64,000 bases of DNA from Parvularculaceae bacterium (GTDB lineage: Bacteria > Pseudomonadota > Alphaproteobacteria > Caulobacterales > Parvularculaceae), in the NCBI GenBank assembly GCA_041744115.1, contig JBGTLL010000181.1:120-64119 (forward strand). The letters are read 5' to 3'. Position numbers and translations under genes: made by a program. Below, piece after piece: positions 30,823 through 50,769 of this stretch (the first letter of the stretch is position 1; each line of letters starts with the position of its first letter). The notes below the pieces were generated by a model. It was given only the letters and a program-made list of their open reading frames with translations. It was not told where the DNA came from and made no database searches.

Positions 30823-31136
30823 TCGAATTTGCCGCTATTTCGATTCTAGAAGCCGGATTTGAACAGGCTGCAATGCAAGCGCCGGGCGTCCAAACGATTC
30901 CTTCAGCTCAAATGGTGTTCCTATCCCTCCAAGAACACCCCGCGGCGCGCATGAATCGGACAGCGGCATCGCAACGCCGATCATGACGCCATTGATCATC
31001 CAAAGTCAAATTCGGCGCTTTCGCGCAGCTACCACATAGCTACCAAGAGGATTCCTAGTTCCGGACCAGTTCCGCCAATAATACTTCGGCGACAATTAAA
31101 TTGCATTGCGCAATGTGTGCCGCGGCGCGGGGGATA

Positions 31137-32280: not shown

Positions 32281-32846
32281 AGCCTTTCATCGTCTTCAGC
32301 CCGGCGCAGATGATCGCGGCGATTTCAAACGGCGCCATCCGCGCCGCGCTGCCGGCCTTTGTCAGCCGGAACGCCGGCAAGCAATGGCGGAACTGGACGA
32401 CGTGCGACCAGGTAACGATCGATCGTCGCAGCGATGCGCCTTCAATTCTGGCGTTCGACGCGTTCGTCGACAATCCGGACCGGCGTTGGGCCAATCCCTA
32501 CCTCTTGGTCATGCACTCCAAGCTCCGCGCGATCGATCACGAACTTGCGTTAACTTTCACGAACTCGCAGCTTCATCGTGAAGCCGCCGCCGCGATGGCA
32601 AGCGGGTGCGCTCAATTGGTTGACGACGGGCGAGCAGAAAAATATTCTCGCGGCCCCCTTGCAGCGGCAGACGGCCTCGACTTTCATGCGGTTCACGACA
32701 CGTGGGCTGGGTTGTCTCACACCAATCTCGATGCGATCGTTGACGCACTGCCCGACTCGCGGATCAGCGGCCGCGCCGCTGGCGCAATCGGCGATCCAAC
32801 GCAAAGGAAGTCAGAAACAATATCGGCGCCGGCATCGCCGAACTGA
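32280..32846 (+). pseudogene. HipA-like (HipA_2-type) kinase, N-terminally truncated
   Basis: AFDAFVDNPDRRWANPYLLV...AIDHELA resembles the FD-N-DR-NPNLL-IDH kinase core; begins where the IS630 ends. Confidence 0.65.
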
Positions 32847-33435: not shown

Positions 33436-34110
33436 CTAACCTGCCACCGCAGCCTTCGCCCTGCCGAGAACCTTCGCCTTCAGCGCGTCTTCATTGCCGT
33501 GCAGGGTCATCAGCGAGTCCATTAATCCCTCGTCAGCGCTGGAGCATACGCCAAGAACTACCGCCTCGTCGCAGCCTTCCGAGGCGACATAGGCGTGGCC
33601 CATCTGGGAATCGATGTAGATCGATTCGCCCTTTGCGAGCGAAACCGGGTCATAGAACTCGGTATGAACTTCGATCGATCCCTCCAGGACGTAAATGTAT
33701 TCCTCACCCGGATGACGAACGAGGTCGCCGAATTCCTCGGCGCTTTTCGCCCGGATCCGCGTCAGCACCGGGATCATCCGCTTCCGGCGAAGCTCTGTGC
33801 ACAGATAATAGTAATCGTAGTTGGCGGTGTTCACTCTGACGGCGTGATCGACATGGCCGATGCTTCGCCGCGCGTTGATCATCGGCTCGGCGGCGCCGTC
33901 GGTTTCGACGAAAAGATCGGCCATGCGCATGCCGAGCCGCTGGCTCAACTGCAGCAATTTGTCATAGGTCAGGGTCAGGCGGTCATGCTCGACCTTCGAA
34001 AGGGTAGATACCGGAATGCCGCACCGGTCGCTCATTTCCTTGAGCGTCCAGCGGTTGCGCGTTCGCAACCCGCGCAAGAGCGTGCCGAGCGTGGGCTGGC
34101 CGATCTTCAT
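33436..34110 (-). CDS. XRE-family HTH-cupin transcriptional regulator
   Basis: WTLKEMSDRCGIPVSTLSKVE HTH; cupin RHPGEEYIYVLEG...DSQMGH; divergent from the hydrolase operon. Confidence 0.92.
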   Translation of the reverse strand: MKIGQPTLGTLLRGLRTRNRWTLKEMSDRCGIPVSTLSKVEHDRLTLTYDKLLQLSQRLGMRMADLFVETDGAAEPMINARRSIGHVDHAVRVNTANYDYYYLCTELRRKRMIPVLTRIRAKSAEEFGDLVRHPGEEYIYVLEGSIEVHTEFYDPVSLAKGESIYIDSQMGHAYVASEGCDEAVVLGVCSSADEGLMDSLMTLHGNEDALKAKVLGRAKAAVAG

Positions 34111-34265
34111 TCGCAGTGCGTCTCCGGGCAAATTCGTCCAGATTGACTTCTTTCCAATTAGGATCAATATATCCCGAACAGGACAAAAGTCTCTGGGTCA
34201 GCAATTATAACAGGGATCGCGCGGAAAGCAAACGGCGCTGAGCGCGGGTTGGAAAGGGGAGCGGA

Positions 34266-36269
34266 ATGCGGATTGCGTCTTTATTGGCTTCGATGCTTCT
34301 GTCAATTGCACAAGCAGCCGCCCAGGAAATACCGCCGCCCGACCCGATCCCCTCCCGCGATGGCGGTGACGCCGCAACGGTCCTGACGACATCCTCGCTG
34401 CAATCAAGCTCCGACCTGACTGCGGACGACGTTAACGCCTGGCTCGACGGATACATGCCTTACGCGCTGAAGACCGGCGACATCGCGGGCGCGGTCGTCG
34501 TCGTCGTCAAGGGCGGCGAGATTCTGACTCAGCGCGGCTACGGCTATTCGGATGTCGCTGAACGAAAACCGGTCGATCCGGCAACGACGCTCTTCAGGCC
34601 GGGGTCGGTCGCGAAACTCTTCACCTGGACGGCGGTGATGCAGCTTGTCGAACAGGGCAAGATCGATCTCGACGCCGACGTCAACATTTATCTCGACTTC
34701 AAAATTCCCGAGCGCGACGGCAAGCCGATCTCAATGCGCAATCTGCTGCAGCATACGCCCGGCTTTGAGGACCAAAGCAAAGACATCATGGCGTCCGACG
34801 GCGATGCGGTCCCGTCATACGAAGAAATTCTGAAACGCTGGACGCCCGCACGCATTTTTCCGCCCGGGGTCACGCCCGCTTATTCAAATTACGGCGCGTC
34901 GCTTGCCGGCTATATCGTCGAGCGCGTGTCGGGCGAGGCGTTTGACGACTACCTCGATCGTCACATCTTTGCGCCGCTCGCCATGGAGCATTCGACGTTC
35001 CGCCAGCCGCTGCCGGCGGCTCTCGAGGCTTTGATGTCCAAAGGATACGACGTCGCCTCGAACGAGCCGAAGGGATTTGAGTTCGTCGGGCCGGCGCCCG
35101 CGGGGTCGCTGTCGTCGACCGGCGAAGACATGGCGCGCTTCATGATCGCCCATCTCCAGAAGGGCGAATACGATGGAAATCGCATCCTCGAAGGGGCGAC
35201 GGCGGAAGAGATGCACGATTCCCCGTTGACGATCCTGCCGCCGCTCAACCGCATGCAGCTTGGTTTTTTTGAAACCAACGTCAACGGCCGCAAGGTCATC
35301 GCGCATCTGGGCGACACGCAGTGGTTTCATTCATCGCTGCATCTTTTCATCGAGGAGAATGTCGGATTCTTTGTCTCCTTCAACAGCCTCGGCAAGGGCG
35401 CCGCCGCCGGAGGGCTGCGCGGCGCGCTGTTTACCGATTTTGCCGAACGCTATTTCCCGGCGCTGCAATCGGACGATAATAGCGGCGCGCGCATCGACGC
35501 CGAGACCTCGGCTGAGCATGCGCGGCTGATGGCCGGCAACTGGATCGTGTCGCGCCGGTCGGCGACAAATTTCATGAGCGCTGCGGCTTTTTTGGGCCAG
35601 ATGAAGATTTCTGTCGGACCGGAAGGCTCTCTCAAAATTCCGCTGCCGGGCCTCAACGGGCAGCCGCAGGAATGGGTCGAAACTGCGCCTTTCGTCTGGC
35701 GCGAGGTCGGCGGCCACGAAAGGCTCGCCGCCAAGGTCGAAGATGGCGAAGTCGTCCGCTGGAGCATCGACGGCGTCTCGCCTTTCATGGTGTTCGACCG
35801 CGCGCCCTGGTATGCAAATGGCGCCTTGCTGCTTCCGATGTTCGGCGTCGCGATCGCCGTGCTGGCGATCAGTGTTGTGCTCTGGCCGGTCGGCGCGATC
35901 GTCCGCTGGCGCTATCGCGCGGCCTCTGGCCTTGATGCGCGGGCGCGGCGCGCGCGCCGCATCAGCCGGATCGCCGCGATTGCAATTCTCGGCGCAATCG
36001 CAGGCTGGGTAATGCTCTTTGTCATGATTTCGACGGATCTCAGCCATCTCAGCGCGAGCACGGATCTGTTGCTCCGTGCGCTGCAGATATTGGGCGCTGT
36101 GGCCTTTATCGGCGGATTTCTGCTGACGTCCTGGAATCTTTTTGTCGTGTGGTCGAAACGGCCGGGCTGGTTCGCCCGGCTGTGGAGCGTCGTGCTCTTT
36201 GCGTCGGCGGCCGCGATCTTGTGGGTCGCCTTCGTGGCAAAATTCATCAGCTTCGGGGTGAACTACTGA
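34266..36269 (+). CDS. Membrane-anchored serine hydrolase 1 (beta-lactamase/D-peptidase fold)
   Basis: Signal peptide, SVAK, YSN, HLGD; about 4 C-terminal TM helices ending FGVNY. Confidence 0.9.
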   Translation: MRIASLLASMLLSIAQAAAQEIPPPDPIPSRDGGDAATVLTTSSLQSSSDLTADDVNAWLDGYMPYALKTGDIAGAVVVVVKGGEILTQRGYGYSDVAERKPVDPATTLFRPGSVAKLFTWTAVMQLVEQGKIDLDADVNIYLDFKIPERDGKPISMRNLLQHTPGFEDQSKDIMASDGDAVPSYEEILKRWTPARIFPPGVTPAYSNYGASLAGYIVERVSGEAFDDYLDRHIFAPLAMEHSTFRQPLPAALEALMSKGYDVASNEPKGFEFVGPAPAGSLSSTGEDMARFMIAHLQKGEYDGNRILEGATAEEMHDSPLTILPPLNRMQLGFFETNVNGRKVIAHLGDTQWFHSSLHLFIEENVGFFVSFNSLGKGAAAGGLRGALFTDFAERYFPALQSDDNSGARIDAETSAEHARLMAGNWIVSRRSATNFMSAAAFLGQMKISVGPEGSLKIPLPGLNGQPQEWVETAPFVWREVGGHERLAAKVEDGEVVRWSIDGVSPFMVFDRAPWYANGALLLPMFGVAIAVLAISVVLWPVGAIVRWRYRAASGLDARARRARRISRIAAIAILGAIAGWVMLFVMISTDLSHLSASTDLLLRALQILGAVAFIGGFLLTSWNLFVVWSKRPGWFARLWSVVLFASAAAILWVAFVAKFISFGVNY

Positions 36270-36342
36270 TGGACTGGCCAACGGGGAGAGTCTCGGCCAA
36301 TTGCCGCCGGCGAAGGTTCGGCGACAAGCAAAGAGGGCGCTT

Positions 36343-38316
36343 GTGCGATCGATCCTTTCACTGACCATCGCAATGACGGCAATGGCCGCCGCGCCCCTCG
36401 CCGCGCAAGTGACCGCGCCGCTCGCAACGCCGGCCCCGATGGCTGTCGAGGCGCAATCGCGATCGGCGACGCCGCTGACCGCCGCCGACCTTGACGCCTG
36501 GCTCGACGGCTACATGCCGTATGCGCTGAAGACCGGCGATATCGCCGGCGCGCAACTTGTCGTCGTAAAGGACGGGGCAGTCTTGACCTCGCGGGGCTTT
36601 GGGTATTCGGACGCGGAAGCGCGCGAGCCTGTCGATCCGGCGATGACGCTGTTCCGGCTTGGCTCGGTTGGCAAATTGTTCACCTGGACCGCGGTGATGC
36701 AGCAGGTTGAGCAGGGCAAGATCGACCTCGACGCCGACATCAACGCCTATCTCGATTTCAAGATTCCCGAACGCGACGGCAAGCCTGTCACGATGCGAAA
36801 TCTGATGCAGCACACGCCGGGCTTTGAAGAATCGTTCCGGAATGGCGGGACGACCAATCCCGAAGCGGCGATTTCGACGGAACAATGGCTGAAGGACTGG
36901 ACGCCCAAACGCGTCTTCGAGGCCGGCGTGACGCCCGCCTATTCGAACTACGGCGCCTCGCTCGCCGGCTACATCGTCGAGCGCGTTTCCGGCGAGCCGT
37001 TCGATGATTATCTGGAGCGCCACATTTTCGGGCCGCTCGAAATGCGGCGATCGACCTTCCGCCAGCCGCTGCCGGATGATCTGGCGCCGTCGATGTCGAA
37101 GGGCTACGCGCTCGCTTCCGGCGATCCGAAAGACTTCGAGATATTCAATATGGCGCCGGCCGGCTCGATGTCATCGACCGCCGACGACATGGCGAAATTC
37201 ATGATCGCGTTTCTGCAGGATGGCGAGTTCAACGGCAAGCGCATACTTCGCCCGGAAACGGTCGAGATGATGCACAACAGCCCGTTGACATTGCTGCCGC
37301 CGCTCAACCGGATGGAGCTCGGGTTTTTCGAAACCGGCATCAACGGCCGCAAGATCACCGGGCATCACGGTGACACGCAGCTTTTTCACACCTCGCTGCA
37401 TCTCCTCAGAGACGAGGGCGTCGGCTTTTATGTCTCCTTCAACAGCACGGGCAAGGCCGGCGTCTCCGGCGACCTCCGCACCGCGCTGTTCGACGATTTT
37501 GCCGATCGCTATTTTCCAGGCGAAGGCGTTGACGGCCGCGTCGACGCCGGGACGGCGGCTGAACATGCGAAGATGATGGCGGGGAATTGGGTGCTGTCGC
37601 GGGGCTCGGCGTCGAACTTCATGAACGTGATTGAACTGTTTAGCCAGTTCACGATCAGCGTCGGGCCAGAGGGCGAACTTGTCGTGCCCTACCTCGGTCT
37701 GAACGGCAAGCCGCGCGACTGGGTCGAGATCGCGCCATTCGTCTGGCGCGATGTTGGCGGTCATCAGCGTCTCGCCGCGCAGGTCGAGGGTGGCAAGCCC
37801 GTGCGCTTCAGTTTCGATCTGGTATCCCCGTTCATGGTGTGGGACCGCGCGCCCTGGTACAAGAACACCGCAATCCTGCTGCCGCTGTTCGGCGCGAGCC
37901 TTGCAGCGCTGGCGCTCACCCTCATTCTATGGCCGGTCGTCGCAATCGTCCGCTGGCGTCATAAATCAAGCCTTGCGCTCGAGCCGCGTGCGCTTGGCGC
38001 CTATCGTCGTAGCCGGCTCGCGGCGCTCGCAATCATCCTCGGCATGGCAGGCTGGGTCGGCGCGCTCGCCGTGCTGACGCTCGACAGCGACGCCGCGAGT
38101 TCAGCCTCCGATCCGATGTTCTGGTTTGTCCAGATCTTCGGCGCTGTCGCCTTCATCGGCGGCGCTTTGCTGTTGCTGCGAAGTCTGCAAGTCGTGTGGA
38201 CGGGCAAACGGAGCTGGTTTGCGAAGCTGTGGAGCCTCGTGCTGGCGGCGTCCGCGCTCTCCGTTCTCTATGTGGCGTTCGCCTTCAAGCTGATCGGTTT
38301 CGGGGTGAATTATTGA
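36343..38316 (+). CDS. Membrane-anchored serine hydrolase 2 (paralog)
   Basis: SVGK, YSN, HHGD; same architecture, also ends FGVNY. GTG start inferred (ORF track 36301). Confidence 0.9.
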   Translation: MRSILSLTIAMTAMAAAPLAAQVTAPLATPAPMAVEAQSRSATPLTAADLDAWLDGYMPYALKTGDIAGAQLVVVKDGAVLTSRGFGYSDAEAREPVDPAMTLFRLGSVGKLFTWTAVMQQVEQGKIDLDADINAYLDFKIPERDGKPVTMRNLMQHTPGFEESFRNGGTTNPEAAISTEQWLKDWTPKRVFEAGVTPAYSNYGASLAGYIVERVSGEPFDDYLERHIFGPLEMRRSTFRQPLPDDLAPSMSKGYALASGDPKDFEIFNMAPAGSMSSTADDMAKFMIAFLQDGEFNGKRILRPETVEMMHNSPLTLLPPLNRMELGFFETGINGRKITGHHGDTQLFHTSLHLLRDEGVGFYVSFNSTGKAGVSGDLRTALFDDFADRYFPGEGVDGRVDAGTAAEHAKMMAGNWVLSRGSASNFMNVIELFSQFTISVGPEGELVVPYLGLNGKPRDWVEIAPFVWRDVGGHQRLAAQVEGGKPVRFSFDLVSPFMVWDRAPWYKNTAILLPLFGASLAALALTLILWPVVAIVRWRHKSSLALEPRALGAYRRSRLAALAIILGMAGWVGALAVLTLDSDAASSASDPMFWFVQIFGAVAFIGGALLLLRSLQVVWTGKRSWFAKLWSLVLAASALSVLYVAFAFKLIGFGVNY

Positions 38317-39326
38317 TGACCCGCCTTTCGATGACGGCGGCGGTCGAACGCTACCCGCTTGCCGCGCCTTTCCGCATCTCCGGCCTTGTGTTCGAGCGGC
38401 AGGACGTCGTCGTCGTGACGCTGAGCGACGGCGTCCACCAGGGACGCGGCGAGGCGGCAGGCGTCTACTATCTGGGCGAGGGAACGCCGGAGATGATCGC
38501 GGCGCTCGACTCCGTTCGCGCGGAAATCGAGGCGGGCGTTGATCGCGCGGCGCTGCAACGCCTCTTGCCGCCGGGCGGCGCGCGCAATGCGCTGGATTGC
38601 GCCTTGTGGGAGCTTGACGCGGCGCGCGCCGGCAAACCGGTTTGGGAACTGGCGGGTCTTGTTGCGCCGAAGGCCTTGTTGACGACATTTACGGTGGGCG
38701 CTGACGATCCCGACCGGATGGCGCAAGGCGCGCGCAGGTTTGCACAGGCGCGTTCGATAAAACTGAAACTTACCGGCGAGCTTGATCTTGACATTGAGCG
38801 CGTGCAGGCGGTGCGCGCAGCGCGCCCCGATGTGTGGATCGGCGCCGACGCCAATCAGGGTTTTGCCGTCTCCGATCTTGAGGCGCTCATCCGCGCATTG
38901 GTCGTCTCCGGCGTTTCCTTGCTCGAACAGCCGCTGGCGCGCGGACGCGAGGCCGATCTTGAAGGATTGAAATCGCCGATCCCGATCGCCGCCGACGAAA
39001 GCGTCCTGTCGCTGGCTGACATAGCAGGGCTGGTCGGGCGTTTTGCTGTCGTCAACATCAAGCTCGACAAATGCGGGGGTCTGACCGAAGGGCTGGCGAT
39101 GGCGGCGGAAGCGCGGCGCCTCGGACTCGGCGTCATGGTCGGCAACATGGTCGGCACCAGCCTCGCGATGGCGCCGGCGTTTGTGCTCGGCCAATTGTGC
39201 GACGTCGTTGACCTTGATGGACCGATTTTCCTCGCCAGGGACCGCTCTCCCGGCGTCACCTACGCCGACGGCGCGGTCTCTTGCGGCGAGGACGTCTGGG
39301 GAACGCCGAGATCCGCCGCGGCATGA
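38316..39326 (+). CDS. Enolase-superfamily dipeptide epimerase/N-acyl-amino-acid racemase (DgcA/YcjG-like)
   Basis: KLK, DANQ, EQP, DES, NIKLDKCGG and DLD; overlaps the stop of the previous gene. Confidence 0.9.
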   Translation: MTRLSMTAAVERYPLAAPFRISGLVFERQDVVVVTLSDGVHQGRGEAAGVYYLGEGTPEMIAALDSVRAEIEAGVDRAALQRLLPPGGARNALDCALWELDAARAGKPVWELAGLVAPKALLTTFTVGADDPDRMAQGARRFAQARSIKLKLTGELDLDIERVQAVRAARPDVWIGADANQGFAVSDLEALIRALVVSGVSLLEQPLARGREADLEGLKSPIPIAADESVLSLADIAGLVGRFAVVNIKLDKCGGLTEGLAMAAEARRLGLGVMVGNMVGTSLAMAPAFVLGQLCDVVDLDGPIFLARDRSPGVTYADGAVSCGEDVWGTPRSAAA

Positions 39327-40618
39327 CCGCGCCGCCGGAAACGACCTGGTTCGGCCATCCGCGCGGGCTGACGATTCTTTTTCTGACCGAGATGTGGGAG
39401 AAATTCTCCTACTACGGCATGCGCGCATTGCTGGTCTATTACATGACCAAGCAATTGCTGATCGGTCAGGAAAAAGCCTCCTACATCTACGGCGCCTACA
39501 CCGCCTTTGCCTATTTCACGCCGATCTTCGGCGGCGCGATCGCCGATCGCTGGCTTGGCAAACGACGCGCGGTGATCATCGGCGGCAGCGTGATGGCCGC
39601 CGGCCATTTCATGATGACATTCGAGCCGCTGTTTTATCCGGCGCTGGCGACAATCGCGTTCGGCAACGGCCTGTTCCTGCCGAGCCTGCCGAGCCAGATC
39701 AACGACCTTTATCCGGCGACGGATCGCCGGCGCGGCTCGGCGTATAATGTCTATTATGTCGGCATCAATGTCGGCGGATTTCTGGCGCCGCTTGTCTGCG
39801 GCACGCTCGGGGAACTCTACGGCTGGCATTGGGGGTTCGGCGCGGCCGGTATCGGGATGATCGCGGGACTCGCAATCTATATTTTCGGCGGCAGATATCT
39901 GCCCGACGCGGCGCGTCGCCAGCCGATGGCGCGCCGCCCCGCAATGGCGCCCGCAAATTATCGCTCGACCTTTTTTGTCCTCATCGGCGTCGGCCTTGCG
40001 GTGACGGTCTTTCGCGGCGCCTACGAACAGGTCGGCAACACGGTCGCCTTGTGGGCGGACGTCGGCGTCGACCGGGCGGCGGGAGCGATGACGATCCCGA
40101 TGACGTGGTTCCAGTCGCTGAACCCGCTCTTCGTCGTCATGATGACGCCGCTGCTGCTCGCCCATTGGCGGCGGCGGTCGGACAGGGGGCGCGAGCAGTC
40201 TTCGGCGCAAAAGATGGCGATCGGCGCGGCGATCGTCGCCGGCGCCTATCTGCTGCTGGCGGCGGCGTCGTATATTTCCGGCGATGGCGGCCGTTCACAC
40301 TGGCTGTGGCTCGCCGCGTTCTTTGCGATCCTCACCTTGGGCGAACTCTATATTCTGCCGACGGGGCTTGGCCTCTTCGCGCGCCTCGCCCCGGTCGGGT
40401 TCGGCGCAACGACGGTCGCCGCCTGGTTCTTGGCGATCTTTACCGGCAGCCTGACCGCCGGCGCCGTCGGCGCGTTGTGGAGCGATCTCAGTCATGCCGC
40501 GTACTTCGCCGTCCTCGCGGCGATTTCAATCGTCGCGGCCGGATTGCTTCTCGCACTCGACCCGTCCTCGCGGCGCGTCGAGGCGGCGCGAGCCAAAGAA
40601 ACCGAGGGAATGATATGA
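39323..40618 (+). CDS. POT/PTR2 proton-dependent di/tripeptide transporter
   Basis: GHPRGL...EMWEKFSYYGMRALL; FQSLNP. Confidence 0.93.
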   Translation: MTAPPETTWFGHPRGLTILFLTEMWEKFSYYGMRALLVYYMTKQLLIGQEKASYIYGAYTAFAYFTPIFGGAIADRWLGKRRAVIIGGSVMAAGHFMMTFEPLFYPALATIAFGNGLFLPSLPSQINDLYPATDRRRGSAYNVYYVGINVGGFLAPLVCGTLGELYGWHWGFGAAGIGMIAGLAIYIFGGRYLPDAARRQPMARRPAMAPANYRSTFFVLIGVGLAVTVFRGAYEQVGNTVALWADVGVDRAAGAMTIPMTWFQSLNPLFVVMMTPLLLAHWRRRSDRGREQSSAQKMAIGAAIVAGAYLLLAAASYISGDGGRSHWLWLAAFFAILTLGELYILPTGLGLFARLAPVGFGATTVAAWFLAIFTGSLTAGAVGALWSDLSHAAYFAVLAAISIVAAGLLLALDPSSRRVEAARAKETEGMI

Positions 40619-41922: not shown

Positions 41923-42018
41923 CACCGGCCGACCAGGATACAGCCCGCGATTTTGGTTGACTTTTCTCTGATCAGGACCGTATAGTCCTAAATTGGCTAT
42001 TATTGTCTGGAAGGGCGC

Positions 42019-43218
42019 ATGAGTCGCTGGCCGGTACCCGATCGCCGCAATCTGTTCAAAGGCGTCGCCGCCGGGGCGGTCGTCATGGCGGGCTTCGTTT
42101 TTCCGGCGGCCGGCATTCGCGCGGCGGCGCAAGGCAAAACTTATTCTCCGCGGGCCGTGGCGCTGGTCGAGAAATCGCTCGTCATCGACATGCTGGCGCC
42201 GCTGCGCCTCAACCTGACGCCGGAGGCATACACAAAGCCGCTGACGCGTGAGGAAATCGCCGACTTTCGCGCCTCCGGCGTCACTGGTTTCCACAGCGCG
42301 TTCGGCATCGGCGGACCGACCGCGCGCGAAGACGGGCTCAGCCTCCTTGCCGCGTGGCAGGGGTTTGTCGGCAGGCATTCCGATCTCTTTCTTCTGGTCG
42401 ATAGCGTCGCCGATCTCGACCGCGCGAAAAGCGAAAACAAGATCGCGATGATCAGCGGTATTCAGAACGCGGATCAGTTTGCCGACGCCGATGATGTCGA
42501 GTTTTTCCACGGGCTGGGTCTCAGGTGTGCGCAGCTCACTTACAACAGCCAGAATCTCTTGGGGTCCGGGGCGACGGACCGGGTCGATGGCGGGCTGTCG
42601 GATTACGGCGCCGAGATCGTTGCCGCGATGAACAAGGCCGGAATGCTGGTCGATGTCTCCCATAGCGGCGACAAGACGACCCTCGACGCCATCGCCGCCT
42701 CGGCGGGACCGATCGCGATCACCCATTCAAATTGCCGCGCCATCGTCAATCATCCGCGCGCCAAGACCAATGAAGCGATCAGGGCGCTCGCGAAAAAGGG
42801 CGGCGTGATGGGCGTCACCGGCGTCCGCAATTTTGTGCGCGACCGGGAACCGACGACGGTCGCGCATATTGTCGATCATATCGACCATATCGTGAAGCTC
42901 GTCGGCGTCGAGCATGTCGGCATCGGATCGGATTCCGACCTTTACGGCTACGACGACATGCCGGCCGATCAATATGAAGCGCTGAAGCAAAGCTACAAGG
43001 CGAGCTACGCCTTCCGCGATAAAATCGACGTCGACGGCTTCGATCATCCGCTGAGGATTTTCGATCTGACCGATGAGCTGATCCGGCGCAAATATTCCGA
43101 TGCGAACATCGCGCTGGTTCTCGGCGGCAATTTCCGCCGGCTGCTCGGTGAAACATGGAAACGAACAACAAAGGCGGTTCCGCAACTGGACGCCACAACG
43201 GGAGGGGCCAAACAATGA
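42019..43218 (+). CDS. Tat-exported membrane dipeptidase (M19)
   Basis: DRRNLFK twin-arginine signal; QLTYN, DVSH, THSN, HVGIGSD. Confidence 0.9.
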   Translation: MSRWPVPDRRNLFKGVAAGAVVMAGFVFPAAGIRAAAQGKTYSPRAVALVEKSLVIDMLAPLRLNLTPEAYTKPLTREEIADFRASGVTGFHSAFGIGGPTAREDGLSLLAAWQGFVGRHSDLFLLVDSVADLDRAKSENKIAMISGIQNADQFADADDVEFFHGLGLRCAQLTYNSQNLLGSGATDRVDGGLSDYGAEIVAAMNKAGMLVDVSHSGDKTTLDAIAASAGPIAITHSNCRAIVNHPRAKTNEAIRALAKKGGVMGVTGVRNFVRDREPTTVAHIVDHIDHIVKLVGVEHVGIGSDSDLYGYDDMPADQYEALKQSYKASYAFRDKIDVDGFDHPLRIFDLTDELIRRKYSDANIALVLGGNFRRLLGETWKRTTKAVPQLDATTGGAKQ

Positions 43219-45521
43219 CCATCAAGAAAATGTCAAAGCGCGCCGCGCTGATGGCGTCGGCGGGATTTTGGGTCGCCTTTAGCGGCATAGCGTGGGCGCA
43301 GGACGCATCACCGACGGAAGCAGACGACGAAGTCATCGTCACCGCGCAAAAGCGTGAGCAAAGCCTGATCGAGGTCCCTTTGTCGGTGACAGTCCTCGAC
43401 GGCGGCAATCTCGAGCTTCAGCAGGCCGATACTTTCCTCGATTATATCGGCCAGGTTCCAGGCCTCAGCATTGAACAAGCGACGCCCGGCGCGTCGCGTC
43501 TCATCTTGCGGGGCGTCAACACCGGGTCGATTGGTTCGACCTTGGGGATTTATGTCGATGAAACGCCGTTCGGGTCGAGCACCAGCCTCGGCAACGCCGC
43601 GATCCTCGCCGGCGACTTCGACACCTTCGATCTCGAACGGGTCGAGGTCTTGCGCGGGCCCCAAGGGACGCTTTACGGCGCGAACTCGCTCGGCGGCGTC
43701 CTGAAATTCGTCACGCAAGCCCCAAAACTCGGCGTTTATGAAGCGCGCGCCCAAATCGGCGCCGAATCGGTTAAGGGAGGCGACGATTTCGGCTATAACG
43801 CCAACGCCGTCGTCAACCTGCCGCTCGGCGACACGATCGCCGTGCGCGCCAGCGGATTTTACCGCGAGAACGACGGCTTCATCGACGCCACCGGCAGACC
43901 CGCCGAGGACATCAATGGCTCGGAAAGCTATGGCGGCCGGGCGTCCGCGCTGTTCGAGCCGACCGAAGCGCTATCAGTCCGGCTGACCGGAATTTACCAG
44001 AAGATCGCGGCCAACACTGGAACGCTGTTCGATGCCGATCCCCTCACGCTGGAACCACTCGCCAACGATCCTTTCACCATGGCGCCGCTGAATGGCCAAC
44101 TGACCTTCGCGCAGTTCTTTCCCGATTCGAGCGATGTCGAATACAAGCTCTACAACGGCACCGGCGATTGGGATTTAGGTTTCGCCAGCCTTACCTCCGC
44201 GACCAGCTATGGCGTCCTTCAGCAGGACATCGTCGCCGATGCCTCGTCAATCCTCACCGGCCTTGTAACGTTCCTTTACCAAACCTTTGGGGACCCCCTG
44301 ACGCCGCCGCTCGGCATCTTTGCCGACCAGAGCATTAGGCAGAAGAAGTTCACCCAGGAATTGCGGCTCGCGTCGCCAACGTCCGACACGTTCGAATGGC
44401 TGATCGGCGGCTATTTTACGCGCGAGACCGTCGCCCTCGCTCAGGACGCGCTTCCGTTTAACCTTGCGACGTTGGCGCTGACCAATCCGGCGCTCCTCGG
44501 GTTTGACGATTTCCAGACGGCGGCGCTCGATTCGAAATACAAGGAATATGCGGGATTCGCGAACGCCACCTGGCACATCTTGCCGCGGCTCGATCTTTCG
44601 GCCGGCGGCCGCTACAGCCACAACGACCAGAGTTCCGCCCAATTTCTCAATGGCGCGATCTTTCTCCTCTCGGGCGTGCCGGCGCCGATCGCGATCACGG
44701 GTGAATCGTCGGAAAACGTGTTCACCTGGTCGGTGTCGCCGCGCTTTGAACTGAGCGACAATGCGTCGATCTATGCGCGCGTCGCCAAAGGCTATCGACC
44801 GGGTGGTCCGAATGTGGTGCCGCCGGGCGCGGCGCCCGACTTTCCATTCGAATTCGACGCCGACACGCTAATCAGCTATGAGGCGGGCGTGAAGGCCCAA
44901 ACCGCCGACGGCGTCTTCGCGATCGACGCTGCGGGCTATTATCTCGACTGGAAAGACATTCTCGTCTTCGCGCAATTTCCGAGCGCCGTCGGACCGATTG
45001 GCGGCAACGACAACGGCCCCGGCGCGAAAAGCATCGGCGCCGAGGTGACGGTCTCCTTGCGACCGGTGGAAGGGTTGAGCGTTGTCGCCAACGGCGCGTA
45101 CAACGATGCCGAGCTGACCGCCGACACATCGGCGTTGGTTGGCGGTCTCGACGGCGACCAACTGCCGTTCGCGCCAAAATGGTCCGGCAACATCAGCGCC
45201 GATTATGAATGGACCCTTTCGGGCGACGCGACGGTCTTTGTCGGGGGCAATCTGCGGTTGGTCGGCGACCAGTCGGCCGATTTCGACCGGCTTACCGCGC
45301 CTTTTGCCGGTCTGAGACTGGGCTTGCCAAGCTATGAAGTCGTCGACCTGCGGACCGGCGTCACATTCGGCAATCTGTCGGTGACGGGGTATGTCCGGAA
45401 CCTCACCGATTCCGGCGGCCTCACTTCCGTCGGCGGCTTCGGTGGGAGACCCGGCACGGCCGTCGTGGCCTCGCCGATCCGTCCGCGGACTTATGGCGTA
45501 ACGATAGGCGCGTCGTTCTGA
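43215..45521 (+). CDS. TonB-dependent receptor (TBDR3)
   Basis: DEVIVTAQKREQSL and RVEVLRGPQGTLYG; C-terminal F. Confidence 0.95.
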   Translation: MTIKKMSKRAALMASAGFWVAFSGIAWAQDASPTEADDEVIVTAQKREQSLIEVPLSVTVLDGGNLELQQADTFLDYIGQVPGLSIEQATPGASRLILRGVNTGSIGSTLGIYVDETPFGSSTSLGNAAILAGDFDTFDLERVEVLRGPQGTLYGANSLGGVLKFVTQAPKLGVYEARAQIGAESVKGGDDFGYNANAVVNLPLGDTIAVRASGFYRENDGFIDATGRPAEDINGSESYGGRASALFEPTEALSVRLTGIYQKIAANTGTLFDADPLTLEPLANDPFTMAPLNGQLTFAQFFPDSSDVEYKLYNGTGDWDLGFASLTSATSYGVLQQDIVADASSILTGLVTFLYQTFGDPLTPPLGIFADQSIRQKKFTQELRLASPTSDTFEWLIGGYFTRETVALAQDALPFNLATLALTNPALLGFDDFQTAALDSKYKEYAGFANATWHILPRLDLSAGGRYSHNDQSSAQFLNGAIFLLSGVPAPIAITGESSENVFTWSVSPRFELSDNASIYARVAKGYRPGGPNVVPPGAAPDFPFEFDADTLISYEAGVKAQTADGVFAIDAAGYYLDWKDILVFAQFPSAVGPIGGNDNGPGAKSIGAEVTVSLRPVEGLSVVANGAYNDAELTADTSALVGGLDGDQLPFAPKWSGNISADYEWTLSGDATVFVGGNLRLVGDQSADFDRLTAPFAGLRLGLPSYEVVDLRTGVTFGNLSVTGYVRNLTDSGGLTSVGGFGGRPGTAVVASPIRPRTYGVTIGASF

Positions 45522-45535
45522 GCGATTCAGGGACA

Positions 45536-45567
45536 GGGCGCGGGGCAAGACAATCGGCGCCGCGCCC
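45536..45567. other. Intercistronic hairpin after TBDR3
   Basis: GGGCGCGG/CCGCGCCC stem, no U-tract. Confidence 0.45.
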
Positions 45568-45588
45568 GCGCCGCGAGGGAACGCCAAA

Positions 45589-46650
45589 GTGCACAATCTG
45601 TCGTTAGCCGATCTGGAACAGGAAAGCGCCGAGGGATCGGCGCTTGTTCTTCCCCGGCCCTATCTTCTGTTTCTCGGAGACGCGACGGACGCCGCCTACG
45701 CCAAGACCGCGTTCGGGCTTCGCGACTGGGCGCCCGAAAATTGCGTCGGCGAATTCGCCTGCGCCGGCGACAGGATCAGTCTCGGCCTGCCGTTCCTGAC
45801 GCCGGCGGAGGCGCGCGGCCTCGGCGCGCGCGCCATGGTCATCGGCGTCGCCAATACCGGCGGCGTCATTCTGGAAGCTTGGGTTCCCCTGCTGCTTGAG
45901 GCGCTGGCCGCCGGTCTCGATCTCGTCAGCGGCATGCACGACCGGCTGGAAAGCGTGCCCGCGCTCAAGGAAACCGCCAAGAAATATGGACGGCGCCTGA
46001 TCGATATCAGGACGCCCCCGGCATCAATCCCGATTGCAACCGGCCGCAAGCGCCTGGGCAAACGATTGCTCACCGTCGGCACCGACTGTGCGCTTGGGAA
46101 AAAATACACGGCGCTGGCGCTGGCGCGGGCTTTCAAGGCGCGCGGCCTCGACGCCGATTTTCGCGCGACCGGCCAGACCGGCATTCTGATCGCCGGCAGC
46201 GGCATACCGATCGACGCGGTGGTCTCCGATTTCGTCGCCGGCGCCGCCGAGATTTTGAGCCCGGACGCCGCGCCCGGTCACTGGGACGTAATCGAAGGCC
46301 AAGGTTCGGTGTTTCACCCGGCCTATGCGGGGGTCGCTCTCGGCCTGCTGCACGGAAGCCAGCCCGACGTCATTGTCGTCTGTCACGATCCTTGGCGCAA
46401 ATACGTGCTCGGCCATCCGGATTACAAGATCGTCAGCCTCGAAGAGACGATCGACCTCACCTTGCGGCTTGGAAAACGCACCAATCCGGCGATCCGCTGC
46501 GGCGGCGTCAGCCTCAACACGTCGAGCCTCGACGAAGCCGCGGCGCGCCGGCTGATCGCGAACGAGGCGGCCCGGCTGAACCTCCCGGTCGCCGATCCGA
46601 TCAGGGGCGGCCCGGAATTTGAATTGTTGGTGGACGGATGTATCGGCTGA
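45589..46650 (+). CDS. DUF1611 P-loop protein (DgcN-like D-glutamate N-acetyltransferase)
   Basis: PYLLFLGD, AKTAFG, VGTDCALGKKYT, FRATGQTG, IEGQGS. Confidence 0.88.
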   Translation: MHNLSLADLEQESAEGSALVLPRPYLLFLGDATDAAYAKTAFGLRDWAPENCVGEFACAGDRISLGLPFLTPAEARGLGARAMVIGVANTGGVILEAWVPLLLEALAAGLDLVSGMHDRLESVPALKETAKKYGRRLIDIRTPPASIPIATGRKRLGKRLLTVGTDCALGKKYTALALARAFKARGLDADFRATGQTGILIAGSGIPIDAVVSDFVAGAAEILSPDAAPGHWDVIEGQGSVFHPAYAGVALGLLHGSQPDVIVVCHDPWRKYVLGHPDYKIVSLEETIDLTLRLGKRTNPAIRCGGVSLNTSSLDEAAARRLIANEAARLNLPVADPIRGGPEFELLVDGCIG

Positions 46651-47624
46651 CGACTTTGCTGGCCGGTCTCGCGTTCATGCTGGCGGCGCCGGCGTTGGGC
46701 GCCGGGCCCGCGGATACATTGAAAGCGGAAATCGAACGGATCGCGGCGCCGGTCGGCGGCGTTGTCGGCGTCGCCGCCGGGCGGCTTGACGGCAACGGGC
46801 CGCGGATTTCGGTCAACGCCGAAACGCCGTTCCCGATGGCGAGCACGTTCAAGATCGCGGTCGCCGGAAAAATTCTCGCGCTGGTCGACAGCGGCGAGAT
46901 CAGCCTCGATCAGATGGTGAATGTCGATCCCGACCTCCACGTTGAATCGGAAGTGATCGCCGACCGCTTCATCCATCCGGGCGTCAGCCTCTCGGTGCAC
47001 AATCTGCTCGAACTGATGATAACGCAAAGCGACAACACCGCGACCGATGTGCTGACGGCGCTCGCCGGCGGGCCGGACGCGGTGACGGCGTGGGTTCGCG
47101 GCGAGGGCGTCGAGGGCTTGCGCGTCGATCGCGACACCGGCGGCCTCTTGCGTGATTTTTACGGACTGCCGGCGGGGGCCTTTCCGGATGCGCTTGCGGA
47201 GGCGTACGCGGCCAACCCGGATATCGTGGAAAAGAGCGATAAGCCCGATCCGGCTTTCGACAAGGATCCGCGCGACACCTCTACGCCGGCGGCGATGGCG
47301 CATCTCCTTGACCGCATCTTCAGCGGCGACGCGCTGGCAACAGAAACGACGCGGGAACTGATTGCGATGATGGAACGCAACCGCACCGGGGACGGACGGA
47401 TCAGGGCAAGGCTGCCGCCAGCGACAAAAGTCGCCGACAAAACCGGCACCGTCGGCGGGTCGCTCAACGATGTCGGCGTGATCACGCTTCCAGGGGGCGC
47501 AGGCGACATCGTCGTTGCGATTTTCATCAAGGAGAGCGCAGTTCCCTTTGCTGCGCGCGAAGCGGCGATCGCCGACATCGCGCGCGCGATTTACGATTTT
47601 TATCTGTTCGGCGCCAGGCGATGA
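46638..47624 (+). CDS. Class A beta-lactamase-fold serine hydrolase lacking the Glu166 equivalent
   Basis: STFK, SDN and KTG present; RVDRDT aligns to TEM RLDRWE; enlarged omega loop before DPRDTSTP. Confidence 0.85.
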   Translation: MYRLTTLLAGLAFMLAAPALGAGPADTLKAEIERIAAPVGGVVGVAAGRLDGNGPRISVNAETPFPMASTFKIAVAGKILALVDSGEISLDQMVNVDPDLHVESEVIADRFIHPGVSLSVHNLLELMITQSDNTATDVLTALAGGPDAVTAWVRGEGVEGLRVDRDTGGLLRDFYGLPAGAFPDALAEAYAANPDIVEKSDKPDPAFDKDPRDTSTPAAMAHLLDRIFSGDALATETTRELIAMMERNRTGDGRIRARLPPATKVADKTGTVGGSLNDVGVITLPGGAGDIVVAIFIKESAVPFAAREAAIADIARAIYDFYLFGARR

Positions 47625-47634
47625 CAGGTCGATT

Positions 47635-49209
47635 ATGATGAAACGCGTAATCTTCATGCTGGCGCTAGTTTGCGGCTCGCCGCTGAATGCGGCGCCTCCA
47701 GCAGAGTTCGACGCTCGCGTCGAAGCGTTTCGCGAGGACGTGGGCGTTCCCGGCGTATCGATCGCGATTGTCGAAAAGGGCGCAGTCACCCTCGCCAGGG
47801 GCTATGGCGTGAAGCGCCTCGGTTCGCCCGATCCCGCCGGCCCCGATACGCTTTTTTCAACCGGCTCGACCGGCAAGGCGGTCACGGTCGCCGCGCTGGC
47901 GATCCTCGTCGACGAGGGAAAGATCGGCTGGGACGACAAGGTCATCGATCATCTGAGCTGGTTCCGGATGTACGATCCGTGGGTCACGCGCGAGATAACG
48001 ATCCGCGACCTCCTGGTTCACCGCAGCGGTCTCGGGCTTGGCGCGGGCGATCTGCTGTTCGTTCCCGACGCCAAAGCGTCTCGCGCGGAAAGTGTGCGGC
48101 GGCTGCGCTCGATCAAGCCGGCGACCAGTTTTCGCAGCGGCTATGCCTATGACAACGTCCTCTACATGGTGGCCGGCCAGCTGATCGAGGAGGTGACCGG
48201 CAAGACGTGGGAGCACTATGTCGCCGACCGTGTGCTCAAGCCCGCCGGCATGCTGAATTCGACGACCGATGACGACATCCGCTTCACCAGAGCCGATCGC
48301 GCGCAGCCGCACGCACGGATGAATGGCGGATTTCGCGGCGTCGGCGATCAGGAGTTGCTGAACGAACGCGACGGCCTCGGCCGCAACGCCGCCCCGGCCG
48401 GCGGCCTTGCGGTCAGCGCCAACGACATGGCGCGCTGGCTTCTTGTCCAGCTCGCGCGCGGCAAACTTCCCGGCAGCGAAGAACGGCTGTTCAGCGAGGC
48501 CGCATCGACGGAGATGTGGACCCCCGTCGTCATTCAGCCGGTCGATCAGTTGCCGGCAGCGCTCGCCGACGCCGTGCCCGATTTTTATACCTATGCGCTC
48601 GGCTGGGACGTCCAAGACTACAAGGGCGCGAAGATCATCTGGCATGGCGGCGCTGTCTTCGGTTTCAAGGCCGCCGTCGTGCTTATTCCCGATCGCGATG
48701 TCGGGTTCTCGATTGTCATCAATTCCGAAGACGGCGAACTTACTTACGGCGTCATGTATGAACTGCTCGACCATTACCTTGGCGAGCCCAAGGGCGACTG
48801 GCCCGCGGCCTGGAAAAACTATAAAGCGCAACGCGTCGCCGAAGCCAACGAAGCGCTGAAGGTCCAGACCGGCAAACCGGCGGGTGTGGGTCCGTCGCTT
48901 GCGCTTTCGGGCTATGCCGGAAATTACGCCGACCCGTGGTACGGGCCGATCGTCATCACCGAGAGAAAGGGCAAGCTCGCCATTGATTTCATGCACACGC
49001 CGGGAATGAAAGGCAGCCTCGATCACTGGCAATATGAAACTTTCCAGACCCGCTTCGCCGACAAGACGATCGAACCCGCTTACGTCACGTTCGTGCTCGA
49101 CGCCGACGGAAAGGTCGAGCGGATCACGATGAAGCCGGTCTCGCCGGCGGCCGACTTCAGCTACGATTATCAGGACCTTGTGTTCACCCCGGTCAAGGGA
49201 CCGCAATGA
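47635..49209 (+). CDS. Secreted class C-like serine hydrolase with a C-terminal DUF3471-like domain
   Basis: STGK, YDN, HGG; C-terminal YAGNYADPWYG...LDHWQYETF. Confidence 0.88.
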   Translation: MMKRVIFMLALVCGSPLNAAPPAEFDARVEAFREDVGVPGVSIAIVEKGAVTLARGYGVKRLGSPDPAGPDTLFSTGSTGKAVTVAALAILVDEGKIGWDDKVIDHLSWFRMYDPWVTREITIRDLLVHRSGLGLGAGDLLFVPDAKASRAESVRRLRSIKPATSFRSGYAYDNVLYMVAGQLIEEVTGKTWEHYVADRVLKPAGMLNSTTDDDIRFTRADRAQPHARMNGGFRGVGDQELLNERDGLGRNAAPAGGLAVSANDMARWLLVQLARGKLPGSEERLFSEAASTEMWTPVVIQPVDQLPAALADAVPDFYTYALGWDVQDYKGAKIIWHGGAVFGFKAAVVLIPDRDVGFSIVINSEDGELTYGVMYELLDHYLGEPKGDWPAAWKNYKAQRVAEANEALKVQTGKPAGVGPSLALSGYAGNYADPWYGPIVITERKGKLAIDFMHTPGMKGSLDHWQYETFQTRFADKTIEPAYVTFVLDADGKVERITMKPVSPAADFSYDYQDLVFTPVKGPQ

Positions 49210-49282
49210 CCGGTCTCGCGGTCGCATTCTTTTCCGCCGCCGGCGCTGCGGCGATCCTCGTCCATCTCTTCGAGCGGCTGCG

Positions 49283-50380
49283 GTGACAGCCAGCACGTCA
49301 TTTTTCCAGCGCTTCCTGCTGCCCGGTCTCGTCTTCAAGGCGGTCGTCATCGGCGGCGGCTACGCCACCGGGCGCGAACTCGTCGAGTTTTTCTTGCCGG
49401 CGGGCCCCGCGGGCGGCGTATTGGGAATGTTGCTCGCGATGGCGATCTGGAGCGCGGTGTGCGCCGTCGGCTTCGCGTTCGCGCATTCGCTTTCGGTCCA
49501 CGACTACCGCGGTTTTTTCAGGTCGCTCCTCGGGCCGTTCTGGCGGCTGTTCGAGGTTGCGTATCTGTTGTTCCTTGTGCTGATACTCGCCGTCGTCTCG
49601 GCGGCGGCGGGCGCGATCGGCGCCGCCCTCTTCGGCTGGCCGGTCGTCGCCGGCACGCTGATCCTGATGGCCGCGGTCGCCGGTGTTGCAAGCTTTGGCA
49701 ATGCCGGCGTCGAACGCGTGTTTCCCTACACGTCGGCGCTCATCTATATCGTATATGCGTTGTTTCTGGCGCTGGCGCTGACCAACTTCGGCGACCGCAT
49801 TCCCTCAAGGCTTGCGCTCGACGTTCCGATCGGCGGCTGGGCGACCGGCGGCGTCGTCTACGCCAGTTACAATGTTGTCGCGATGATCGCGGTTCTGCCT
49901 TTTGTGCGCCATCTGACCAGCCGCCGCGACGCCTTGATCGCGGGCGCGCTATCGGGGCCTTTGGCCATGCTCCCGGCGCTGATGTTCTTTCTGTGCATGA
50001 TCGCCTTCTATCCCGAGATCGGCGCCGAGACGCTGCCATCCGATTTTCTGCTCCAGCGCATGAACGCGCCGTGGTTTCACATGCTGTTCCAGCTGATGAT
50101 CTTCATGGCGCTGCTCGAAACCGCGGTCGGAGTAATCAACGCGTTCAACGAAAGGATCGGGACGACGCTCAAGGCGCGGAACGTGCGCCTTTACTCCTTT
50201 CGCGCGCGCTTCCTGGTGGTTGCGGCGCTGCTCGTCGGATCGGGCTTTGTTGCGGCGCGCTTTGGCCTGGTGACCCTCATCGCCAAGGGTTACGGGGCGT
50301 TCGGATACGTCATGCTCGCAATCCTCGTGGCGCCGCTTTTAACGATCGGTACCTGGAAGCTCCTGAGAACCCGGCAGTAA
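49283..50380 (+). CDS. YkvI-family membrane protein (putative amino-acid permease)
   Basis: VVIGGGYATGRELVEFF; multi-TM. GTG start inferred. Confidence 0.82.
   Translation: MTASTSFFQRFLLPGLVFKAVVIGGGYATGRELVEFFLPAGPAGGVLGMLLAMAIWSAVCAVGFAFAHSLSVHDYRGFFRSLLGPFWRLFEVAYLLFLVLILAVVSAAAGAIGAALFGWPVVAGTLILMAAVAGVASFGNAGVERVFPYTSALIYIVYALFLALALTNFGDRIPSRLALDVPIGGWATGGVVYASYNVVAMIAVLPFVRHLTSRRDALIAGALSGPLAMLPALMFFLCMIAFYPEIGAETLPSDFLLQRMNAPWFHMLFQLMIFMALLETAVGVINAFNERIGTTLKARNVRLYSFRARFLVVAALLVGSGFVAARFGLVTLIAKGYGAFGYVMLAILVAPLLTIGTWKLLRTRQ

Positions 50381-50693: not shown

Positions 50694-50769
<76 letters not shown>

Follow-up and report, generated by a model that had tools for sequence, protein, structure and literature searches.

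A candidate TonB-dependent regulon for scavenging D-glutamate-containing peptides in a Parvularculaceae bacterium

The stretch of DNA analysed here (the window, 64,000 nucleotides) comes from contig JBGTLL010000181.1 of a Parvularculaceae bacterium (assembly GCA_041744115.1), and its positions 33436-50380 hold a cluster of 12 genes, among them that of a TonB-dependent receptor (TBDR), which we propose to be a regulon for scavenging peptides that contain D-glutamate (D-Glu). Gene starts were refined by homology onsets and ribosome-binding sites, gene junctions were checked base by base, and families were taken from comparisons with Pfam, NCBIfam and the Protein Data Bank (PDB). As listed in Table 1, the open reading frames and family scans give one minus-strand regulator gene and eleven plus-strand genes, that is, the divergent XRE-cupin regulator and eleven co-oriented genes that a preliminary description of this DNA had reported. 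The joining of genes by overlapping start and stop codons, also reported there, is borne out by four overlaps of 1-4 nt (TGATG at 38314-38318; ATGA at 39323-39326, 40615-40618 and 43215-43218) and by one of 13 nt between the DUF1611 and class-A-fold genes (46638-46650), and its four hydrolases of the penicillin-recognising fold can be read in the sequence by their SxxK motifs (SVAK, SVGK, STFK and STGK). A further ATGA lies at the end of the S12-DUF3471 gene (49206-49209), with its ATG out of frame with the permease gene, for which the public gene call gives a GTG start at 49283. Six of the proteins are predicted to be exported via a signal peptide or a twin-arginine motif; the racemase and the DUF1611 protein have neither.

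Table 1. Genes and promoter/operator sites of the cluster (window positions), with the share of related loci that carry each gene, counted by tblastn among 58 loci with full 10-kb flanks unless another total is given
Feature	Position	Strand	Support	Share of loci
XRE-HTH and cupin regulator	33436-34110	-	Pfam HTH_3/HTH_31 and Cupin_2; start ATG 34110	74%
P1 promoter/operator, upstream of S12TM_a	34143-34198	+	TTGACT-N8-ATTAGGAT...; AGGAT-N6-ATCC spans -10	
S12TM_a, periplasmic S12 (PF00144) serine hydrolase, beta domain, four-helix C-terminal anchor	34266-36269	+	Pfam 199 bits	86% (S12TM)
S12TM_b, tandem S12TM_a paralogue, four C-terminal transmembrane helices	36301-38316	+	PF00144	
DgcA-like enolase-superfamily racemase/epimerase, cytoplasmic	38316-39326	+	NCBIfam DgcA 375 bits	90% (52/58)
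POT/PTR2 proton-coupled di/tripeptide permease	39323-40618	+	Pfam PTR2 157 bits; TIGR00924 280 bits (cutoff 130)	45%
Amidohydro_1 metallo-carboxypeptidase/dipeptidase, Sec signal	40615-41922	+	Pfam 172 bits	9%
P2 promoter/operator, upstream of M19-TBDR	41957-42012	+	TTGACT-N8-ATCAGGAC; AGGAC-N6-GTCCT over -10 TATAGT	
M19 dipeptidase, Tat-type signal, periplasmic	42019-43218	+	Pfam Peptidase_M19 259.9 bits, model 2-318/319	16%; second M19 type in 13/82 related loci
TonB-dependent receptor (TBDR)	43215-45521	+	plug and barrel domains	78%, just upstream of dgcN; different TBDR in six more
DgcN-like D-glutamate N-acetyltransferase (DUF1611), cytoplasmic	45589-46650	+	Pfam DUF1611_N 78 and DUF1611 242 bits	
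Class-A beta-lactamase-fold protein, secreted, accessory	46638-47624	+	NCBIfam class A 221 bits (cutoff 200)	5%; 5/82 related loci
S12 PF00144 hydrolase with C-terminal DUF3471, secreted	47635-49209	+	Pfam 206 and 93 bits	83%
Probable YkvI-family inner-membrane permease	49283-50380	+	homologue names; ~10 hydrophobic segments	69%, after dgcN

Two cytoplasmic enzymes connect the cluster with D-Glu. The DUF1611 protein joins a Rossmann-like DUF1611_N domain to a P-loop DUF1611 domain, matches the DgcN model of NCBIfam (NF041892) at 451.7 bits over model positions 1-318 of 326 and aligns without gaps to PDB entry 7XRJ over 318 residues (E = 2e-102, 50% identity, 66% positives); its close homologues in isolates carry the NCBI name 'DUF1611 domain-containing protein'. 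For the racemase, DgcA (NF042940, 375 bits) is the top NCBIfam family, 135 bits over the YcjG/YkfB L-Ala-D/L-Glu epimerase model (NF011708), where the score of 239.7 bits stays below the cutoff of 343, and its PDB matches are 4GFI (1.4e-68) and YcjG (1JPD, 7e-61). The catalytic residues of the MLE subgroup of the enolase superfamily (KxK, D/E/D and the second K) are kept in the racemase and its clade, in the motifs KLKL, DANQG, LEQP, ADES and NIKLDK. Since the DUF1611 protein is 50% identical to 7XRJ and the racemase has DgcA as its top family, the catabolic end of the cluster most likely corresponds to a known D-Glu pathway: the DgcN-DgcA(-DgcR) route of Pseudoalteromonas sp. CF6-2 (Yu et al. 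2023, ISME J 17:537), which reportedly leads from D-Glu to N-acetyl-D-Glu and on to N-acetyl-L-Glu. The preliminary description had listed the DUF1611 protein and an epimerase of YcjG/YkfB type. Both genes are there and the second encodes an enolase-superfamily enzyme, but scores of 375 bits for DgcA and 240 bits for YcjG make it DgcA-like, and the two are better placed as a DgcN/DgcA pair, which had gone unrecognised; the D-amino-acid theme of that description holds, with the target narrowed to D-Glu rather than D-amino acids generally. A bioRxiv preprint dated 2026 (10.1101/2024.10.14.618325) identifies 7XRJ as the enzyme from Yu et al. 2023 that acetylates D-glutamate, and PMC10845958, PMC12363236 and PMC11747546 cite DgcN-DgcA as a D-Glu catabolic route, the second of them with the statement that dgcN acts on acidic D-amino acids and their amides.

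What surrounds these two genes differs from the characterised type of locus. The DgcN-DgcA locus of Pseudoalteromonas sp. CF6-2 reportedly has the same two enzyme families in one locus and the same presumed chemistry. Scanning metagenomes with the 7XRJ sequence yielded 80 marine/hypersaline loci, and in the 33 of at least 12 kb that were used for comparison, dgcN and dgcA are adjacent in all but one (32/33), while the other ten gene families of the window are found in none (0/33); a gene for a class IV (D-amino-acid-type) aminotransferase follows dgcN-dgcA in 23/37 marine/hypersaline loci, which suggests that the marine loci are a three-gene D-amino-acid module. Loci of the characterised type thus keep dgcN and dgcA side by side and lack TBDR, peptidase, POT, YkvI and XRE-cupin genes, whereas in the window dgcN and dgcA belong to separate operons within an uptake and hydrolysis system. 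Because no marine locus of the comparison carries the import and hydrolysis genes, this front end is specific to the window's clade.

Within that clade the arrangement is widely kept. A scan with the window DgcN, taking one genome per species, gave 80 loci, from Lysobacterales, Steroidobacteraceae, Woeseiaceae, Sphingomonadales, Caulobacterales and Acetobacteraceae, and the 12 window proteins were compared with related loci by tblastn (Table 1). All six core genes (regulator, S12TM, DgcA, TBDR, DgcN and S12-DUF3471) are present in 35/58 loci, 32 of which are colinear with the window, and such recurrence, in dozens of species, puts the arrangement far outside what chance would produce; gene-neighbourhood conservation, named beforehand in the preliminary description as a check that could count against it, came out in favour of a conserved unit. 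Culturable species found to carry the locus include Pseudoxanthomonas mexicana (SDU_PSEU2), Arenimonas daejeonensis (KACC 14631), Sphingopyxis indica (DS15), Lysobacter dokdonensis (DS-58) and Stenotrophomonas rhizophila. The Sphingomonas version is rearranged, with the same families kept. Window genes that are missing elsewhere are often replaced by like enzymes (Amidohydro_3, a second M19 type or another TBDR), mostly with signal peptides, and in at least 22 related loci the slot after POT is taken by an Amidohydro_3 protein that is secreted. Of all versions observed, that of the window is the richest, with all eleven families and the tandem S12TM duplication. The TBDR upstream of dgcN is 33-36% identical to that of the window in Lysobacterales and 44-50% identical in Woeseiaceae, Steroidobacteraceae, Aurantiacibacter and Caulobacter, and the replacement TBDR of the six further loci is unrelated and 950 residues long; judged by these sequences, the receptor is swapped while its position and operator have stayed. 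In one related metagenome locus, the amidohydrolase and M19 genes are separated by an IS110-family transposase that lies just ahead of the conserved operator; the locus also has an AA_permease gene in place of YkvI and an extra Peptidase_M15 gene downstream.

The two gene groups also have a promoter/operator sequence in common. A block (TTGACAATTcTCtgATtaGGAtcATtAT) is found in the regulator-S12TM intergenic regions of 38 loci, and the pattern TTGACW-N8-ATYRGGAY has two exact matches in the window (P1 and P2, Table 1) against 0.10 expected; P2 also came out independently, at 10/12 positions, as the top match of a generic sigma-70 promoter scan of the region. Across 1.5 Mb of related loci, every one of the motif sites (81/81) stands directly upstream of a cluster gene (S12TM 39, TBDR 36, M19 of the M19-TBDR pair 5 and DgcN 1), compared with a single site in 0.85 Mb of marine loci taken as a control. 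The presence of the motif upstream of both gene groups points to two co-regulated transcription units, and the overlap of the boxes with the -10 element suggests repression. It should be noted that a strict inverted repeat (AGGAY-N5-7-RTCCY) occurs in only 19/80 sites, and a universal palindrome is therefore not claimed. A first operator pattern, with two ATYRGGAY boxes 13 nt apart, had been rejected after chance-level matches only; it failed because the spacing of the boxes varies, and the pattern anchored at the -35 element succeeded. A terminator scan did no better than shuffles. Orthologues of the regulator, where found, are 64-78% identical to it, and in the PDB only the HppE cupin matched, with no characterised structural relative. 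The XRE-cupin protein is probably the factor that binds the boxes, and we presume it to be the sensor and repressor of both operons.

The most widely kept of the hydrolases are the membrane-anchored S12 proteins (S12TM), a distinct and tightly conserved family of 640-690 residues. The two window copies are 63% identical over 622 residues, and most related loci have a single copy. In S12TM_a, the motifs SxxK (S114/K117), YSN (206-208) and HxG (347-349) are invariant among 34 S12TM homologues, and an AlphaFold2 model (predicted local distance difference test score 76) has, besides the catalytic domain, a beta domain and four transmembrane helices, with Pab87 (2QMI), the DL-peptidase Lip3 (9SN1), IS11 and SurE as the top Foldseek matches. 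Lip3, a DL-peptidase that cleaves lipopeptides (PMC12903863), is also the top PDB match by sequence. The S12-DUF3471 protein has the motifs STGK, YDN and HGG, and its closest PDB relatives are ClbP (3O3V/7MDE, the best), then IS11 and Pab87. The nearest solved S12 relatives include D-specific peptidases (Lip3, Pab87, alkaline D-peptidase, R61 and ClbP). S12TM shares the SxxK/YxN/HxG motifs and the two-domain fold with Lip3, ClbP, Pab87/CubicO, alkaline D-peptidase, DAP and R61, and ClbP is likewise anchored by C-terminal transmembrane helices; it differs from these D-stereospecific peptidases in its low identity to them (18-25%) and its four transmembrane helices, with esterases equally close in fold space. 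The likeness to Lip3 and ClbP is remote (E ~1e-22 to 1e-26; 18-22% identity in the fold alignment), and because esterases are equally near, D-stereospecificity of the S12 hydrolases is plausible only.

The other secreted enzymes are less widely kept. The class-A-fold protein carries STFK, SDN and KTG and passes the cutoff of NF033103 (221 bits, cutoff 200), but residues 166-205 stand in place of the omega loop (R-x-E166-x-x-L-N170), so that Glu166 and Asn170 are lacking; the alignment to class A enzymes stops at residue 165, a 40-residue insert follows, and the protein and all four aligned homologues have 'DR-D/N-T' where 'R-x-E' is expected. The amidohydrolase, with the signal peptide MKNVVIAAFLLATSLLATAKAQ, scores 355 bits against the NCBIfam model of the Caulobacter Xaa-Pro dipeptidase (cutoff 500) and has 2QS8, 3MTW (Cc2672) and 3BE7 as PDB relatives. 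The M19 dipeptidase has the twin-arginine motif RRNLFK and matches PDB entries 2I5G and 3ID7 (Sco3058, 3.6e-28); Sco3058 is said to prefer L-Xaa-D-Xaa dipeptides.

Three transport genes complete the cluster. The TBDR is not SusC-like (29 bits for TIGR04056, cutoff 368), and none of the 12 genes is SusD-like in Pfam or NCBIfam, which sets the cluster apart from a Bacteroidota-type polysaccharide-utilisation locus (PUL). As in the carbohydrate utilisation containing TBDR (CUT) loci of Proteobacteria, a TBDR, an inner-membrane transporter, degradative enzymes and a regulator stand in one locus, united here by gene content, conserved synteny and the common promoter/operator. The POT gene is coupled to the dgcA-like gene by its ATGA overlap. 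The permease has no match in Pfam, NCBIfam or the PDB; NCBI, UniRef and JGI give the name YkvI family to homologues 59-70% identical to it, it is presumed to import D-Glu or amino acids, and in Pyrococcus horikoshii a YkvI-family gene and a racemase gene are co-induced by D-allo-Ile (PMC13628549).

Taken together, we favour, with moderate confidence, the reading of the cluster as a two-operon regulon that scavenges D-Glu-containing peptides, for which peptidoglycan stem-peptide fragments of dead bacteria would be the most plausible source. The TBDR would carry such peptides across the outer membrane, and in the periplasm the two membrane-anchored S12 hydrolases, the soluble S12-DUF3471 protein, the class-A-fold protein, the M19 dipeptidase and the amidohydrolase may, by analogy with their family relatives, trim them to di/tripeptides and free D-Glu. 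POT would then take up the di/tripeptides and the YkvI-family permease the D-Glu. In the cytoplasm, going by the characterised homologues, DgcN would acetylate D-Glu to N-acetyl-D-Glu and the DgcA-like enzyme would racemise this to N-acetyl-L-Glu, to be passed on by a deacetylase encoded elsewhere or to arginine biosynthesis; direct epimerisation of imported L-Ala-D-Glu by the racemase is a further possibility. The XRE-cupin protein would sit on the ATYRGGAY boxes over both core promoters and come off once its cupin domain has bound a ligand derived from D-Glu. The pipeline of import, cleavage, uptake and D-to-L conversion in one self-contained unit, as first proposed for this DNA, thus stands, except that its last step is most likely acetylation of D-Glu followed by racemisation rather than plain L-Ala-D-Glu epimerisation.

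Several observations weigh against this reading. Both enzymes of the catabolic end score below their equivalog cutoffs (451.7 < 480 bits for DgcN and 375 < 400 bits for DgcA), and the locus has no gene for an N-acetyl-L-Glu deacetylase. The racemase shares 42.7% of its residues with canonical DgcA and 39.5% with E. coli YcjG, and its N-terminal substrate-capping loops are unlike those of both; YcjG and canonical DgcA are themselves 47% identical and have capping-loop motifs in common that are absent from the window clade. By its sequences the racemase clade is a subclade of its own, and as it is nearly equidistant from DgcA and YcjG, homology alone cannot settle between N-acetyl-D-Glu and L-Ala-D-Glu as its substrate. 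As for the hydrolases, esterases (IS11, EH7) and beta-lactamases are found among the S12 relatives too, and the relatives of the amidohydrolase cut L-Xaa-L-Arg or L-Xaa-L-Pro, that is, L-peptides. No NlpC/P60 or MpaA/M14 gene (for cleavage of the bond between gamma-D-Glu and diaminopimelate, DAP) and no muropeptide-handling gene recurs in the clusters. In the PDB the TBDR sequence matches FyuA, which gives no clue to its ligand, and the window stems from a hot-spring metagenome, with the sequence present in only four such runs, all of them DNA.

Four other explanations were weighed. The first, which we hold to be unlikely, is the uptake of free acidic D-amino acids or of poly-gamma-glutamate (gamma-PGA) oligomers, with hydrolases that cut gamma-D-Glu chains or serve the cell's own wall turnover. 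It accords with the fact that the only substrate-specific modules, DgcN/DgcA and the YkvI permease, point to D-Glu itself, with the lack of any recurrent peptidoglycan-specific amidase, NlpC/P60 or M14 gene in the clusters, and with the use of acidic D-amino acids and amides that is attributed to dgcN in PMC12363236. However, D-Glu (147 Da) would cross porins and need no TBDR, and a POT carrier with up to six periplasmic peptidases favours peptide substrates. For gamma-PGA, moreover, the known hydrolases belong, to our knowledge, to other families.

The second, also unlikely and placed just after it, is that the racemase is a YcjG/YkfB-type L-Ala-D/L-Glu epimerase acting on dipeptides imported by POT, with a different role for the DUF1611 protein. 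The translational coupling of the dgcA-like and POT genes by an ATGA overlap would suit such an enzyme, as would its 39.5% identity to YcjG with the DxD motif (DLD) kept, and its PDB matches 4GFI and 1JPD are proteins of the dipeptide-epimerase group. The DLD motif is also kept in canonical DgcA and is thus not discriminating, and the YcjG hidden Markov model falls 135 bits under that of DgcA and below its own cutoff (240 < 343). Furthermore, the racemase gene occurs together with that of DgcN in 90% of the full-flank loci and in 32/33 canonical loci, as is expected if the two enzymes act in sequence, and a characterised D-Glu acetyltransferase shares 50% identity with DgcN. The linkage of the racemase gene to DgcN favours N-acetyl-D-Glu as the substrate of the racemase. 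N-acetyl-D-Glu and L-Ala-D-Glu are nearly isosteric, which makes dual activity plausible, and the pairings dgcA-POT and dgcN-YkvI would fit a use of both substrates too; either way, the stereocentre that is inverted belongs to D-Glu.

We regard as improbable the third explanation, namely defence against, or feeding on, nonribosomal peptide antibiotics or lipopeptides with D-residues, in which the S12 proteins would be resistance peptidases of the Lip3, BogQ and TriF kind and DgcN/DgcA would salvage D-Glu. The top PDB sequence match of S12TM is indeed the lipopeptide-cleaving Lip3, that of S12-DUF3471 is ClbP, which cleaves an N-acyl-D-Asn prodrug motif, and producers of peptide antibiotics share the habitat of Lysobacter and its relatives. 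The similarity to Lip3 and ClbP is remote, however, efflux and immunity genes are absent from the locus, and resistance has no need of a TBDR, two inner-membrane importers and a D-Glu catabolic pair under one regulator. Finally, a beta-lactam resistance or sensing cluster, which the four beta-lactamase-fold proteins (one at 221 bits against the class A cutoff of 200, three with PF00144) might suggest, is highly improbable, and resistance is rejected, since the class-A-fold protein lacks the deacylating Glu166/Asn170 omega loop and is found in only 5/82 loci, and the S12 proteins have HxG rather than KTG, reach 54-80 bits where class C cutoffs are at least 415, and are co-regulated with D-Glu catabolism.

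A regulon for D-Glu-containing peptides has partial parallels among known systems. Loci for murein-peptide salvage, such as dppABCDE-ykfABCD of Bacillus subtilis and mpaA-ycjG of E. coli with MppA/Opp, combine uptake and catabolism of D-Glu wall peptides: a D-aminopeptidase works with a peptide transporter, and the D-Glu centre is inverted by an epimerase of the enolase family; the ycjG-mpaA neighbourhood of E. coli was also observed in this analysis. These loci use ABC transporters, gamma-D-Glu-DAP peptidases of the NlpC/P60 or M14 type and an LD-carboxypeptidase, and are not known to have a TBDR or DgcN, whereas the window locus lacks the NlpC/P60, M14 and LD-carboxypeptidase families and has TonB-dependent import and S12, M19 and amidohydrolase enzymes instead. 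The logic of TBDR, periplasmic enzymes, transporter and regulator is that of CUT loci, of Bacteroidota PULs and of RagAB of Porphyromonas gingivalis, the last of which shows that TonB-dependent peptide import exists; the window locus differs from them in its substrate class (peptides and D-amino acids), its non-SusC TBDR without a SusD/RagB partner, and its ending in a stereo-inversion pathway. The mlr cluster for microcystin degradation in Sphingomonadales pairs a serine peptidase of the penicillin-binding fold (the S12-type MlrB) with a POT carrier (MlrD), as does the window locus, and its target peptide is rich in D-residues, D-Glu included; it has MlrA as its first enzyme and a narrow distribution, and is not known to have TBDR, DgcN, DgcA, M19 or XRE-cupin genes.

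A literature search for this architecture (TBDR with D-Glu or DUF1611) found no description of it, in agreement with the earlier statement that no characterised system has the whole of it, although the catabolic core has already been characterised: what is known is the DgcN-DgcA pathway, and what would be new is its embedding in a TonB-dependent peptide-utilisation regulon. We therefore put forward, tentatively and with some reservation, that the cluster may be the first dedicated TonB-dependent uptake-and-catabolism regulon for D-amino-acid peptides, with stem peptides as the likely substrate, an undescribed D-Glu-responsive XRE-cupin regulator with its operator, a new family of membrane-anchored D-peptidases, and a DgcA subclade that might accept both N-acetyl-D-Glu and L-Ala-D-Glu. 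The cluster itself is widespread in Lysobacterales, Steroidobacteraceae, Woeseiaceae, Sphingomonadales and Caulobacterales.

In soils and waters, the D-Glu bound in peptidoglycan makes up a large stock of organic nitrogen that is recycled slowly, and the capture of peptidoglycan peptides from the surroundings by Gram-negative bacteria is poorly known; the locus offers a concrete and widespread candidate system with defined parts, taxa and cis-regulatory site. With it, the DgcN-DgcA pathway, seen in marine bacteria with free D-Glu, would gain a form coupled to import, carried by Proteobacteria of soil, freshwater and hot springs, and the logic of polysaccharide-utilisation loci would be extended to peptides. 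For annotation, four beta-lactamase-fold genes, one of them above the NCBI class A cutoff, probably encode peptidases and not resistance proteins, and automatic pipelines are likely to call the class-A-fold protein wrongly as a resistance gene.

The cluster is bracketed by a DDE_3 transposase fragment (31029-31649) and a HipA-like fragment (32211-32846) on one side and a minus-strand tRNA-Phe gene (50694-50769) on the other, and G+C climbs from ~0.58 to 0.61-0.65 at its entry; the two fragments, the tRNA gene and the G+C shift make it possible that the cluster was gained as an island. Elsewhere in the window, positions 4761-30658 hold two TBDR-centred loci for alpha-glucan utilisation, with which the window becomes a run of TonB-dependent nutrient loci. 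The first comprises a TBDR (4761-7277), a LacI-like gene and a GH13 gene (8312-9931), and the second an MFS gene (12099-13658), a LacI-like gene, two GH13 genes, a TBDR of 939 residues (18623-21442), two Trp_halogenase-family genes, a further GH13 gene, a GH97 gene (27005-29083) and an SSF symporter gene (29096-30658). Further along, the minus-strand neighbours 57720-58976 (a GT87-family glycosyltransferase) and 58973-60247 are alike at their N-termini, and the second, judged by eye, seems to be a paralogue of the first.

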